This document shows, in pieces, positions 21,322 to 36,018 of a stretch of 36,018 nt of DNA (its first letter is position 1; the number at the start of each line of letters is the position of its first letter). Made by a program: the position numbers and the translations under genes. The stretch lies in IMG/VR virus record IMGVR_UViG_3300045988_025231, one strand, 5' to 3'. The stretch is from a virus. The notes below the pieces were generated by a model, which saw only the letters and a program-made list of their open reading frames with translations, was not told the origin of the DNA and searched no databases.

Positions 21322-21353
21322 CAAAGGTAAGCATTATCCCCAGCATCCCCAAA
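21322..21353 (-). promoter_or_regulatory. Late-operon promoter (Bacteroidota type). -33 TTTG (21353-21350), 20-nt spacer, -7 TACCTTTG (21329-21322).
   Basis: Minus strand reads TTTGGGGATGCTGGGGATAATGCTTACCTTTG, 27 nt upstream of the terS ATG. Confidence 0.55.
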
Positions 21354-21442
21354 TTCTACCCATCAAGATGACCTAGCGAATCACGACCCCACAAAATTCC
21401 GCAAATTACCGGATCTCGGAATCTAAGATTGCCAATTCACGG

Positions 21443-21808
21443 TCCTGCATTGATAAACTGCATTGATGCATAGATCATCAATTCACTGTAACTTACTGAT
21501 CGTCAATAAGATGCATTGCTTGTGCATTGATTGCATAGATGTTTTCCTATATTTACCAACGAAATCTTTTGATTGTGTTAAATTGCATATACAATTATAT
21601 ACACTATTTAACAACATCAAAAGAATTCATATATTTAATAATACTCATTTTATCTATGCATCAATGCAAATATCTATAAATCAGTAGGTTATCCTGCATA
21701 GATGAGAAAAATATTATCAATGCACATCAATGCAGCTTGCGCATCACAATGATTTGTAGCAACTTACAAGAATACATAAAACTACGGATGTACTATATAC
21801 TTTACAAA
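21443..21808. repeat. Non-coding element, copy B (diverged duplicate of 506-886).
   Basis: GCATTGAT at 21447, 21460 and 21524 (plus GCATTGCT at 21513). ATCAATGC at 21660, 21716 and 21726. The 21628-21703 core is nearly identical to 705-781. Confidence 0.85.
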
Positions 21809-21924: not shown

Positions 21925-21978
21925 AAATTTATAAATTCGTGCAAATTGAGAAAATTTATAAATTCGTGCAAATTGAGA
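21925..21978. repeat. Perfect 27-bp tandem direct repeat x2 (AAATTTATAAATTCGTGCAAATTGAGA).
   Basis: Units at 21925-21951 and 21952-21978 are identical. A partial inverted copy follows at about 21985-22013. Confidence 0.9.
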
Positions 21979-23949: not shown

Positions 23950-24359
23950 TTCTCTATGGCTTTTAGCATTTTCTTCAATTCTCCCTTACTCACTGATATC
24001 CGGTCAGCACCTACGGTATCTGTGATCTCCCAGCCTCCGAATGCCGTGCCTACCCAGATGGCAAAGTTCTCCGTTGAGTTGTTCAAGGCTACCTGTTCGT
24101 TCCGGCTTGCCTCGTAATCTACCATCGACCGGAGAAGAGCTGCTGCCTTCTCCTTGTCGCCCAGCTCCACGTTCATCCTAAGGAACCTGTTGTCTTTGGT
24201 CTGCCCGCTGATCTTGTATTGATCTCCGGTCTTCACCAGCTTGCATGTTCCCATGCGGAACGATGCGATTGTTTCCGGTTTCCCGGCAGTTGTGATCTGA
24301 GAAATTGCGTTCGCAGTGAACGCCAAAACTAGAACTAATAATGTAATAAGCTTTTTCAT
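23946..24359 (-). CDS. Secreted protein with a cleavable signal peptide (137 aa).
   Basis: N-terminus MKKLITLLVLVLAFTANA/ISQ (positive n-region, hydrophobic core, AxA site, no lipobox Cys). It is the first gene behind promoter cassette 1. Confidence 0.6.
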   Translation of the reverse strand: MKKLITLLVLVLAFTANAISQITTAGKPETIASFRMGTCKLVKTGDQYKISGQTKDNRFLRMNVELGDKEKAAALLRSMVDYEASRNEQVALNNSTENFAIWVGTAFGGWEITDTVGADRISVSKGELKKMLKAIEK

Positions 24360-24372
24360 GACTGTTTAATCT

Positions 24373-24470
24373 TAATTGTTACTACTTGTTTAACTTTGAT
24401 GACGCAAATATAAGGGAATTCTTCTGAATTTGCCAAATTTTGAACAAATTATTAATACTCATTAACGTTT
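24373..24470 (-). promoter_or_regulatory. Early promoter cassette 1. AACGTT box, 13-bp palindrome AATTTGGCAAATT over -33 TTTG (24437-24434), -7 TATATTTG (24412-24405), conserved leader.
   Basis: Minus strand reads ...AAACGTTAATGAGTATTAATAATTTGTTCAAAATTTGGCAAATTCAGAAGAATTCCCTTATATTTGCGTCATCAAAGTTAAACAAGTAGTAACAATTAA. It is near-identical to cassettes at 28240-28332 and 33641-33732. Confidence 0.65.
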
Positions 24471-26189: not shown

Positions 26190-26624
26190 TCATAATCCTA
26201 AACTCCTTGCGTAAATTTCTTCCGATAGCTCCTCGATAGTCCAGCGTTCCGGGAAAAGTTTGACTAGCGCCTCCGCAGTTTCCACAAGGTCCGGACGGAG
26301 ACAGTCGGTTCCGAGGAGATTGGCTACGGTGTGCAGCTTGTCATTCTGGTATATCTCCGATCGGAAGGTCTCGAACAGTTCGTCCTTCCCCTGTGTCAGA
26401 CAAGCGTCTTCCAGGTTTCCCAGCTCTCTGCGGGCGTACTCCCTGCGGAGAACCTTGTCGGGTATCTCGGATAGGAGGAACTGCTGGATATTCTCCGGCA
26501 ATGCCTTTATTGCCTCTCCGATGGCGTATCCTCCTGCCGGGGTATCGTTCGCTATCTTGGTGACCACATCGACAAACAGTTTGATGCGGTCGAGTTTTAA
26601 TCTCTTGTTAAAATCTACTTCCAT
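26190..26624 (-). CDS. Hypothetical early protein (144 aa).
   Basis: I prefer the ATG at 26624 (MEVDFNK); the track start at 26636 is a TTG. Helical; no motif. Confidence 0.5.
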   Translation of the reverse strand: MEVDFNKRLKLDRIKLFVDVVTKIANDTPAGGYAIGEAIKALPENIQQFLLSEIPDKVLRREYARRELGNLEDACLTQGKDELFETFRSEIYQNDKLHTVANLLGTDCLRPDLVETAEALVKLFPERWTIEELSEEIYARSLGL

Positions 26625-26645
26625 AATTTTCTGCAAATATAATAA

Positions 26646-26963
26646 CTACTCATTGTAAGGCAAAAGGTTTTTCAAGGAATTCTCCATCTCTTCGGAATAG
26701 CCCTTGATCGCTACCTCCTTAAGCGAATATCTGACGATGATCAGAAACATATTAAAGTCACCCTTCGTGTGCTCATATGGAACGCACATACTCGATACTA
26801 CGTTAAAGGCACTTGAGAATTCTACGAATATCCCGATTCCTCGGAAGTATATGGTCATCCTCCTGGAATCCATTCTTTTCGTCAGCGCGAAGTCACCCGC
26901 CTTTACGAATCCCATATCGAGCAACTTCTTTGTAAATTCTATTCTTATTTCTTCCTTTTCCAT
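26646..26963 (-). CDS. Hypothetical early protein (105 aa).
   Basis: ATG-initiated ORF 2 nt after the VRR-NUC stop. No motif. Confidence 0.5.
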   Translation of the reverse strand: MEKEEIRIEFTKKLLDMGFVKAGDFALTKRMDSRRMTIYFRGIGIFVEFSSAFNVVSSMCVPYEHTKGDFNMFLIIVRYSLKEVAIKGYSEEMENSLKNLLPYNE

Positions 26964-28024: not shown

Positions 28025-28225
28025 TTATAGTATCACTTCTACTCCGATAATGTATCCTTCGTAGAATAGCTTGTTTAATCGGGGGTCTATCGTAGCGTAA
28101 ACCTTGTTTACTAATTCAGAGAAACAGGGGAATTCATCTTCCGGGAATTCTACCCCTATCTTAACGCTTTTTGTTTTGTTTGATTCGGTGATTTTAAACT
28201 TAACCTTTAATGTAATTGTCTTCAT
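28025..28225 (-). CDS. Hypothetical early protein (66 aa), first gene behind promoter cassette 2.
   Basis: ATG-initiated ORF. No motif. Confidence 0.45.
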   Translation of the reverse strand: MKTITLKVKFKITESNKTKSVKIGVEFPEDEFPCFSELVNKVYATIDPRLNKLFYEGYIIGVEVIL

Positions 28226-28239
28226 AATCTTTATATTTT

Positions 28240-28332
28240 TAATTGTTACTACTTGTTTAACTTTGATGACGCGAATATACGGCAGTCTTCTGAATTTGCC
28301 AAATTTTGAACAAATTTTTAACGTTTGTTAGT
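28240..28332 (-). promoter_or_regulatory. Early promoter cassette 2. Palindrome at 28293-28305, -33 TTTG at 28303-28300, -7 TATATTCG at 28279-28272 (one mismatch), conserved leader.
   Basis: Minus strand reads CTAACAAACGTTAAAAATTTGTTCAAAATTTGGCAAATTCAGAAGACTGCCGTATATTCGCGTCATCAAAGTTAAACAAGTAGTAACAATTAA. Confidence 0.55.
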
Positions 28333-28362: not shown

Positions 28363-28386
28363 AAAAAACCTCCCGTATCGGGCTTC
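28363..28386 (-). terminator. Weak terminator-like signal. Short hairpin CCCG-ATA-CGGG followed by AGG and T6 on the minus strand.
   Basis: Minus strand reads GAAGCCCGATACGGGAGGTTTTTTATT, about 145 nt downstream of the primase stop and just upstream of cassette 2. The stem is only 4 bp. Confidence 0.3.
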
Positions 28387-28530
28387 ACAGCAGGATACAG
28401 GAGGAAAAATATAAATATGTATGACAAACATAAAGAAGTGAAATGTTGACTGCTCTCAGCCTAAAATCTTCTTATCAGTAGTACAAGATACAAATTATAA
28501 CCCTTAAATTCAGTGATGCAAAGATATGTA

Positions 28531-33030: not shown

Positions 33031-33624
33031 TTAGTACGGAAGGTCTTCACCCGTAGGATCATCGAAGATCGGATCATTGTCCGTATCATCGTCTTCTTCA
33101 TCGAAGTCGTTGATAACCGATCCTCCGCCTCCGAAGGCTTCATCGTCTTTCACCTTCTGAACTCCGTTCAAGCCGAATGTGATCCCCTTGTTTGCAATCT
33201 GATCGAATGAGTAGGCATCTATCGAAGCAACTCCCCAGCATCCGGAGTAGAAATCTTCTTTCTGTGTGATCGGTTGTTTGTGCCTGTCGATGATAACCGG
33301 ACGACCTTGAGATTCATTGCGGGAAGCACGAATGTAGTACATTCCTTCGAATCCATCGTATTCAATATTGTCGTCACCGTCTTTGATAGGATTCCATTTT
33401 GACGGGTCACCGGGCAACTTGCCATTGCATTTCGGATGTTCCGCAAGGTATTCCTTCTGCAACTCCTTGATAGCTGCTGCAACCTTCTTGATATTCTCCT
33501 TGTCAGTCTTCGGGATTAAAATGGTCACTTCGTACTTTGATTTGCCTTGGTTGAAACGGTCTTCCGCTTCGAATACTCTCACGAATGAGAATCTTACATT
33601 TTTTAGGATTAATTTCTTTCCCAT
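33031..33624 (-). CDS. Phage single-stranded-DNA-binding protein (DUF2815 type).
   Basis: N-terminus LILKNVRFSFVRVFEAE...KYEVTILIPK and an acidic C-terminal tip DDDTDNDPIFDDPTGEDLPY. Conserved position between the DUF2800 nuclease and the polymerase. Confidence 0.7.
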   Translation of the reverse strand: MGKKLILKNVRFSFVRVFEAEDRFNQGKSKYEVTILIPKTDKENIKKVAAAIKELQKEYLAEHPKCNGKLPGDPSKWNPIKDGDDNIEYDGFEGMYYIRASRNESQGRPVIIDRHKQPITQKEDFYSGCWGVASIDAYSFDQIANKGITFGLNGVQKVKDDEAFGGGGSVINDFDEEDDDTDNDPIFDDPTGEDLPY

Positions 33625-33640: not shown

Positions 33641-33732
33641 TTGTTAATACTACTTGTTTAACTTTGATGACGCAAAAATATAACGTCTATTTGAATTTGC
33701 CAAATTTTGAACAAAATATTAACGTTTATTAG
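33641..33732 (-). promoter_or_regulatory. Early promoter cassette 3. Palindrome at 33694-33706, -33 TTTG at 33704-33701, -7 TATTTTTG at 33680-33673, conserved leader.
   Basis: Minus strand reads CTAATAAACGTTAATATTTTGTTCAAAATTTGGCAAATTCAAATAGACGTTATATTTTTGCGTCATCAAAGTTAAACAAGTAGTATTAACAA. Its upstream end overlaps the stop of the nuclease gene. Confidence 0.65.
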
Positions 33733-35696: not shown

Positions 35697-36018
35697 TTAC
35701 TGTTTTTTAAATGTTAAATATTTTTCTGTAATTTCCGCTTTGCTGAGTCTCAACGCACCGTTCCTGTTACGGTAGTGATTGAGATAGCCTTGTTTTACTC
35801 TGTAGCGTACCGCATTCTCGGTAAGGTCCAAAATACGAGCAGCTTCGCTGATCGTGATCAATTCTAACTTCTTTTCTTGATTCTCCATAAACTCAATTAA
35901 TTTTTTTGGTTTTCTATAATTCCTTAAAAAATCTACATACGCTCTTTCCCTAGCCCTCTCGTAGATTGGGTGGTATAGTTCGGCAGTCTTCACTATAAAA
36001 TCTTTTATCGGGTATTCA
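35697..36018 (-). CDS. C-terminal part of the first early gene: HTH DNA-binding domain (excisionase/MerR-like HTH_17 pattern). It is truncated by the window end and continues at 1..298.
   Basis: ELITISEAARILDLTENAVRYRVKQGYLNHYRNRNGALRLSKAEI fits the lt..EaA..Lgvs..tv...v..G.l...k.g....i pattern. The frame is continuous through the terminal overlap. Confidence 0.7.
   Translation of the reverse strand, partial: EYPIKDFIVKTAELYHPIYERARERAYVDFLRNYRKPKKLIEFMENQEKKLELITISEAARILDLTENAVRYRVKQGYLNHYRNRNGALRLSKAEITEKYLTFKKQ
35900..36018. repeat. Exact terminal overlap, right copy.
   Basis: Identical to 1-119 base for base. Confidence 0.95.

Follow-up and report, generated by a model that had tools for sequence, protein, structure and literature searches.

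The repeated intergenic cassettes of this phage genome are probably (at a probability of about 0.7, judged from sequence) host-type sigma-ABfr early promoters joined to a Shine-Dalgarno-independent translation leader. They appear to belong to a known kind of element, a host-read early promoter with a translation leader that is also a recombination junction; the notable part is that the leader core is found, by sequence match, also in unrelated Bacteroides phages and before host housekeeping genes.

The stretch of DNA analysed (the window; 36,018 nucleotides) is a complete phage genome of ~35.9 kb, with bases 1-119 recurring at 35900-36018 and nearly all genes on the minus strand. Among phages of B. 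thetaiotaomicron and B. fragilis it falls into the 38-kb "cluster alpha" siphophages, and its nearest relatives are Bacteroides phages BF1-2 and BT2 (~88% identity). Contig L033, considered as a source of the window, proved to be a relative with 88-95% identity. Genes of the early region specify, in this order, a protein whose C-terminus is HTH_17-like, a DUF2800 PD-(D/E)XK exonuclease, an ssDNA-binding protein of the Enc34 type, a DNA polymerase (so named because its orthologs in BF1-2 and BT2 are annotated as such), a VapE-type primase-helicase, a SNF2-type helicase and numerous small proteins without an assigned function; neither a sigma factor nor an RNA polymerase is found among them. The paper that describes cluster alpha reports mosaicism among the small genes at the genome 3' end, and the word "promoter" is absent from it.

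Cassette anatomy and probable promoter elements

Three cassettes of ~90 bp in the same orientation, placed by an earlier sequence-only reading at 24373-24470 (P3), 28240-28332 (P2) and 33641-33732 (P1), are all confirmed on the minus strand. The start codons that it had given for the genes behind them (24359, 28225 and 33624) also stand, but the distance from cassette end to ATG is 13-16 nt rather than the 15-25 nt it had stated. P1 follows the DUF2800 exonuclease gene, precedes the genes for ssDNA binding/annealing, polymerase and primase-helicase, and comprises a CTAA box (33729-33732, containing the exonuclease stop codon), a GTTAA box (33719-33723), a -33 TTTG (33701-33704), a 20-nt spacer, a -7 box (TATTTTTG, 33673-33680), the leader and the ATG at 33624. 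P2, 3' of the VapE-type primase-helicase gene and 5' of a block of small genes, has a CTAA box (28328-28331), a GTTAA box (28318-28322), a -33 TTTG (28300-28303), a 20-nt spacer, a -7 box (TATATTCG, 28272-28279, with one T-to-C mismatch to TAnnTTTG) and a leader core (AAGTAGTAACAATTAAAAA, 28236-28254) ahead of the ATG at 28225. P3, between the SNF2-type helicase gene and another block of small genes, has a distal GTTAA box (24462-24466, of which TAA is the helicase stop codon), a proximal ATTAA box (24452-24456), a -33 TTTG (24434-24437), a 21-nt spacer, a -7 box (TATATTTG, 24405-24412) and a leader core (AAGTAGTAACAATTAA, 24372-24387) ahead of the ATG at 24359; its transcript would start near 24397-24400. 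The AAACGTTAA boxes are out of register, being the distal box in the cassette at 24373 and the proximal box in the other two, and the AACGTT palindrome once taken as their conserved unit is not upheld, only GTTAA being kept among relatives.

The degenerate fourth copy proposed before the first early gene is real: a profile built from the other three cassettes detects it at 497-413 (nhmmer, E=3.3e-4). This diverged promoter with a long leader (P0, 299-497, minus) carries CTAA/GTTAA boxes at 480-493, one helical turn further upstream than in the other copies, a -33-like TTG (451-453), a -7 box (TACCTTTG, 424-431) and a ~125-nt 5'UTR (299-423), followed by the first early gene.

Profile searching of 10 genomes recovers four cassette copies in every one, always at the same four positions in the gene order, which all nine related cluster-alpha siphophages examined share with the window: P0 ahead of the first early gene, P1 separating the exonuclease gene from the ssDNA-binding gene, P2 behind the primase-helicase gene and P3 behind that of the SNF2 helicase. 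With IMG/VR relatives included, the set grows to 67 cassette copies, 57 of them distinct. Near-invariant across the clade are two GTTAA-type boxes ~11 bp apart, a T-tract, the block TCAAAATTTGG holding the -33 TTTG, and TAnnTTTG, the last of which hardly varies in 55 aligned relatives. A 20-nt spacer is present in 65 of the 67 copies, with a sequence that drifts into several variants.

These elements are those of the Bacteroides primary sigma factor, the published motif of which has TTTG near -33 and TAnnTTTG near -7 with the spacing found in the cassettes (PMC7366714). In the window the -33 TTTG and the -7 boxes are separated by 21, 20 and 20 nt in P3, P2 and P1, and the boxes of P3 and P1 match TAnnTTTG exactly, in keeping with the Bacteroidota consensus that had been claimed for all three. 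The pattern TTTG-N18-22-TAnnTTTG has five matches in the window against 0.56 expected (about nine-fold), two of them within cassettes. The earlier assignment to Bacteroidota promoters is thus borne out by the consensus, by the spacer length and by the location of all copies on the gene strand ahead of gene blocks. The cassettes share the -33/-7 elements and spacing of Bacteroides sigma-ABfr housekeeping promoters (Bayley et al. 2000; Ryan et al. 2020, PMC7366714), but add phased GTTAA boxes and a fixed leader, repeated nearly verbatim.

Other promoter-like sites were noted. Further exact -33/-7 matches lie at 26634-26664 (minus), just before an ORF (26190-26636) inside the P2 unit, and at 21322-21353 (minus), at the start of the small-terminase gene. 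The P2 -7 box differs by a point change from that of relatives (TATATTCG in the window, TATATTTG in relatives), which may weaken this promoter. An E. coli-type promoter scan also flags the cassettes (TTGGCA-17/18-TATATT), but its total is not above that of shuffled sequences and this is not the consensus of Bacteroides, and it was set aside.

As a complete expression unit read by host machinery, each cassette would present to sigma-ABfr, in 5' to 3' order, an upstream element that is UP-like or binds a factor (the pair of GTTAA-type boxes, spaced by one helical turn, and the T-tract/A-tract), the -33 TTTG, the 20-nt spacer, the -7 TAnnTTTG and a transcript start ~5-8 nt further on; promoter activity, start site and the role of the GTTAA boxes are what we infer from these motifs. 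P0 would drive the HTH gene and its neighbours, P1 the replication genes, and P2 and P3 two blocks of small, highly variable accessory genes. Upstream of P2 lies a terminator-like hairpin (28373-28400, with a U-run at 28363-28368; 28363-28400 overall, minus; -19.2 kcal/mol over a 68-nt stretch, z -1.67), which is missed by a simple terminator scan and has a counterpart with a T-run at the matching site in relatives; it would close the replication-gene unit. The division of the early region into transcription units by the cassettes, as the sequence-only reading had it, is plausible, but a hairpin with a U-run precedes P2 only.

The same layout recurs outside the clade. B124-14, a B. fragilis phage of another cluster, has five gene-strand sites that match the alpha-cassette profile (nhmmer, E 8e-7 to 2e-3) and one further, marginal match (E 0.025); one site includes a 19-nt identical leader run. 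Its cassettes likewise consist of paired GTTAA boxes, a -33 element, TAnnTTTG and a leader of the form CATCAAA...AGTAGTAACAATTAAAA...ATTATG, whereas the -33-proximal block TCAAAATTTGG and the palindrome are confined to cluster alpha. Neither the HTH protein nor any of 20 other early-region ORFs tested has a homolog in B124-14.

It is rather unlikely that the cassettes are instead factor-dependent promoters, with the phased GTTAA boxes binding a phage or host activator and P1-P3 acting as delayed-early or middle promoters. The boxes are among the most conserved columns, lie 10-11 bp apart and occur also at P0 and in B124-14, and since they were not found in the few host promoters inspected, a phage-specific factor is conceivable; however, B124-14 shares the boxes with the window but not the early proteins, so that a common phage activator would have to be non-homologous. 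B124-14 is presumably the source of P_BfP1E6, a 'Bacteroides fragilis phage promoter' with a phage RBS that Whitaker et al. reportedly engineered in 2017. Papers that use P_BfP1E6 credit it with UP elements, a -7 consensus and a strong native RBS and call it strong and constitutive in uninfected Bacteroides, which would speak against dependence on a phage factor if it belongs to the same family as the cassettes. Separately, the phased boxes may form an upstream promoter element particular to phages.

The leader and translation initiation

A 25-nt leader sequence is present exactly three times in the window (0 expected), as an invariant leader had been proposed. At least three leader types (A, B and C) occur in the clade, and the window has type A at all three cassettes. 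Adenine makes up 53% of the leader, with a range of 51-58%, and the leaders show no excess structure over shuffled sequences (fold z = -0.1 to +1.8) and no shared fold or covariation; the cassettes as a whole fold with z -0.30, -0.27 and -2.30, again lacking a common structure, and no Rfam family matches leader or cassette. A folded RNA element in either is therefore rejected. Among 51 distinct cassette-leader-ATG units, which cover the three leader types, adenine is found at -13 in 100%, at -12 in 96%, at -11 in 88%, at -6 in 100% and at -3 in 84%, and the 51 units contain in total one internal AUG and two SD-like tetramers.

In Bacteroidia, ribosome profiling and reporters have identified positions -3, -6, -12 and -13, together with low secondary structure, as positive determinants of initiation (PMC6847099). 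The agreement of the phage leaders with this pattern in adenine positions, low structure, absence of a Shine-Dalgarno sequence and scarcity of nearby AUGs means that the leader is best read, on sequence grounds, as a Shine-Dalgarno-independent translation-initiation region: an A-rich, unstructured 5'UTR of ~40 nt in which the adenines at -13/-12/-11, -6 and -3 would draw the ribosome to the first gene or position it there. The initiation regions of Baez et al. 2019 (PMC6847099) have the same adenines, low structure and no SD, but in the cassettes a specific 16-19-nt sequence is common to phages and host genes, beyond composition.

The core of this sequence (AGTAGTAACAATTAAA, a 16-mer) recurs in B124-14 and in host leaders. 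A scan for TTTG-N15-30-AGTAGTAACAATTAAA gave more than 120 viral loci. A large class of matches beside a 335-aa ORF in environmental contigs was judged to represent one coincidental conserved locus and was discounted; the other viral matches examined outside the phage's own clade are cassettes in gut contigs of 31-57 kb, in which the motif follows a -7 box by 17-19 nt and precedes an ATG by 10-11 nt. The same pattern in bacterial genomes gave 64 loci, mostly chance matches. In Bacteroidota/FCB an ORF starts within 25 nt at 14 of 33 sites, 12 of the 14 at 10-14 nt; in other phyla this holds for 6 of 30 sites, scattered in distance, one of which is a Bacteroides-type uL13 locus, and most non-Bacteroidota matches were judged to be chance. 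L039, from a bin labelled Lactococcus garvieae, carries a Bacteroides-type uL13 leader and gene and is probably a mis-binned Bacteroidales contig.

The host genes that have the 16-mer 10-14 nt upstream of their start encode uL13 (in six Bacteroidaceae species), GreA, a TonB-family protein and an HU-like protein, and the motif lies 16-26 nt from the promoter, or >100 nt in uL13 and GreA. Because the host motif is fixed relative to the start codon and variable relative to the promoter, its role is apparently translational rather than transcriptional. Copying of the leader from a host gene was considered and dropped, as the exact 24-mer is absent from 185,579 genomes, although the shorter 16-mer does occur in host leaders. 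A 58-aa ORF (L048, a Bacteroidaceae MAG) and greA of Segatella albensis (L050) have in common ~45 nt of promoter-proximal leader (TTTGTCCCTGT...ATTTTAGTAGTAACAATTAAAA), which points to spread of the leader, or strong selection for it, among host genomes as well.

Repeated conserved leader sequences in several units of one phage are known from lambda nut and HK022 put elements and from the start-associated sequences of cluster K mycobacteriophages, and ribosomal-protein genes are often autoregulated through their leaders. It is conceivable, if improbable, that the leader is some other RNA signal: a nut/put/boxA-like antitermination element, a processing site, or a target of an RNA-binding protein or small RNA. 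The 16-19-nt core is kept beyond what the A-position rule demands, is common to unrelated phages and is found also in the long leader of the host uL13 gene. On the other hand, the leader is unstructured and belongs to no Rfam family, leader types B and C lack the motif yet keep the adenine positions, and the host copies keep register with the start codon and not with the promoter. Unlike lambda nut, HK022 put and the cluster K sequences, the cassettes have no stem-loop and are in register with the start codon; of the features of a nut/put/boxA leader, neither a conserved stem-loop nor, in the host copies, a fixed distance from the promoter is found. The RNA-level signal put forward in the sequence-only reading can thus be retained as a ribosome-binding leader, but not as a structured, covarying or phage-specific element.

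Translation initiation independent of a Shine-Dalgarno sequence remains the preferred role of the leader. Since conservation of the core exceeds the A-position rule, an additional specific interaction may be involved, and it is tentatively proposed that the ~17-nt core (AGUAGUAACAAUUAAAA) with its AnUnnAAGAUUAUG tail is a specific, undescribed Bacteroidales translation enhancer or standby site, used by the host, captured by phages and spread by a mobile cassette.

The palindrome and the first early gene

The perfect 13-bp palindrome AATTTGCCAAATT is present in exactly three copies (24427-24439, 28293-28305 and 33694-33706), overlapping the -33 element, as had been noted. It had been interpreted as the site of a dimeric regulator, and an operator of this kind, bound for example by the HTH product so as to time or shut off early transcription, is very unlikely. 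Its attractions are a perfect 6-N-6 inverted repeat over the -33 element in all three cassettes, different inverted repeats at the same site in other subclades (e.g. TTTGGCAAAACCAAA), and a first early gene that encodes an HTH_17-like protein. This gene (166 aa, HTH_17/MerR-like C-terminus) starts at 298 on the minus strand and runs across the window end to 35697; its 3' part (35697-36018, minus) gives an HTH_17 match of 25.9 bits, with a cutoff of 27. Among early-region genes it alone is recognisable as a DNA-binding candidate, and its product is kept across the clade at ~50% identity.

The palindrome itself is confined to the subclade of the window, BF1-2 and BT2 and to some metagenomic relatives, and is missing from most relatives. 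Its right arm, CAAATT here, is CAAAAC, AAGTTT, AAGATT or CAAATC elsewhere, whereas its left arm, already accounted for by the -33 TTTG with the A-tract, is unchanged across the clade, so there are no compensatory changes. The genome contains 14 perfect 6-N-6 palindromes against 9.05 +/- 2.97 expected, which is chance level, and the three occurrences of this one are explained by repetition of the cassette. The putative recognition helix of the HTH protein (TENAVRYRVKQG versus TENAVRYKIRQG) is nearly identical in subclades with and without the palindrome. With the inverted repeat neither conserved nor co-varying among relatives nor above chance, and with the HTH helix the same whether or not it is there, the operator interpretation is rejected; nor would the palindrome form an RNA hairpin of note (-0.3 kcal/mol only).

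The first early gene and its surroundings have further features. It is one 166-aa ORF in the window (35697-36018 plus 120-298), BF1-2 and BT2; the match to its product is split into two adjacent pieces in BT498P1, ARB14, SJC01, SJC23, BT61P1, BT47P1 and BT16, which in ARB14 (L004, 21182-21677) are an N-terminal ORF and a 62-aa HTH ORF. In the P0 5'UTR (299-423, minus, ~125 nt) there appear to be conserved helices whose changes between subclades are compensatory (GTGGT...ACCAC versus GGGGA...TCCCC, for one), 8 of 19 predicted pairs being changed on both sides in a six-sequence alignment; as an RNA, this UTR may regulate the first early gene in cis. A weak HTH-like similarity to the first early protein (21399-21566, minus; 35% over 62 aa, E 0.055) lies within the supposedly non-coding region upstream of the terminase genes. 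A 165-nt direct repeat (722-886 and 21644-21808, 86% identity) has one copy upstream of P0 and the other upstream of the terminase genes, both in large non-coding regions, and could be a late-promoter, origin or packaging region. A 27-nt unit (AAATTTATAAATTCGTGCAAATTGAGA) is perfectly duplicated in tandem at 21925-21978, in non-coding DNA between the early and late genes.

Cassettes at mosaic junctions

Two of the cassettes coincide with the ends of homology between the window and its nearest relatives. Collinear 88% homology with BF1-2 and BT2 stops 1-22 nt past the 3' end of P3, and collinear homology with the same phages stops 22-23 nt past the 3' end of P2, both breakpoints corresponding to the start codon of the first downstream gene. 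P1 has no homology break against BF1-2 and BT2, and the other early-region breaks fall away from the cassettes; the chance that two of about five alignment ends lie so near a cassette is ~3e-4 by a rough hand estimate. Across the 10 genomes, the first gene belongs to six families after P2 and to seven after P3; the same genes and leader types occur at either position, and in SJC01 one 46-aa gene follows both P2 and P3.

The copies themselves also appear to exchange. Identity between P2 and P3 within a genome is 81-95%, against a mean of 73-77% for the same position across subclades, and the P1 leader in the subclade of the window has been converted to the P2/P3 type. The near-identity of the copies would reflect both functional constraint and homogenisation or exchange by recombination, a mechanism that we infer from the alignments; if copies are homogenised and exchanged, the cassettes would also serve as junctions at which downstream genes are swapped between positions and between phages. 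In ARB14 (L004, 33015-33100) there is a ~83-bp tandem duplication of the upstream half of P3, which is consistent with unequal recombination at the cassette.

The cassettes resemble the PeSL cassettes of T4-type phages (Arbiol et al. 2010, PMC2839356; Comeau et al. 2014, PMC4122927), which are likewise repeated intergenic sequences before small variable ORFs at replacement breakpoints that separate close relatives and contain an upstream stop codon in an AT-rich tract, a strong host-type early promoter, a ribosome-binding region and a start codon. Placement before variable ORFans at breakpoints is found for P2 and P3, but not for P1. In contrast to PeSL, the promoter is of the Bacteroidota -33/-7 type and the leader lacks an SD sequence, the stable G/C-rich stem-loop/terminator of PeSL is not found inside the cassettes, and there are 3-4 copies per genome versus ~50.

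The cassettes thus provide a working map of transcription and translation for common human-gut Bacteroides phages, those of cluster alpha, and explain where the known mosaicism of their small genes begins. The occurrence of a promoter-leader unit in unrelated phages and before host housekeeping genes offers a handle on how Bacteroidia choose start codons without a Shine-Dalgarno sequence, and the unit could supply strong expression parts for the engineering of gut Bacteroides.
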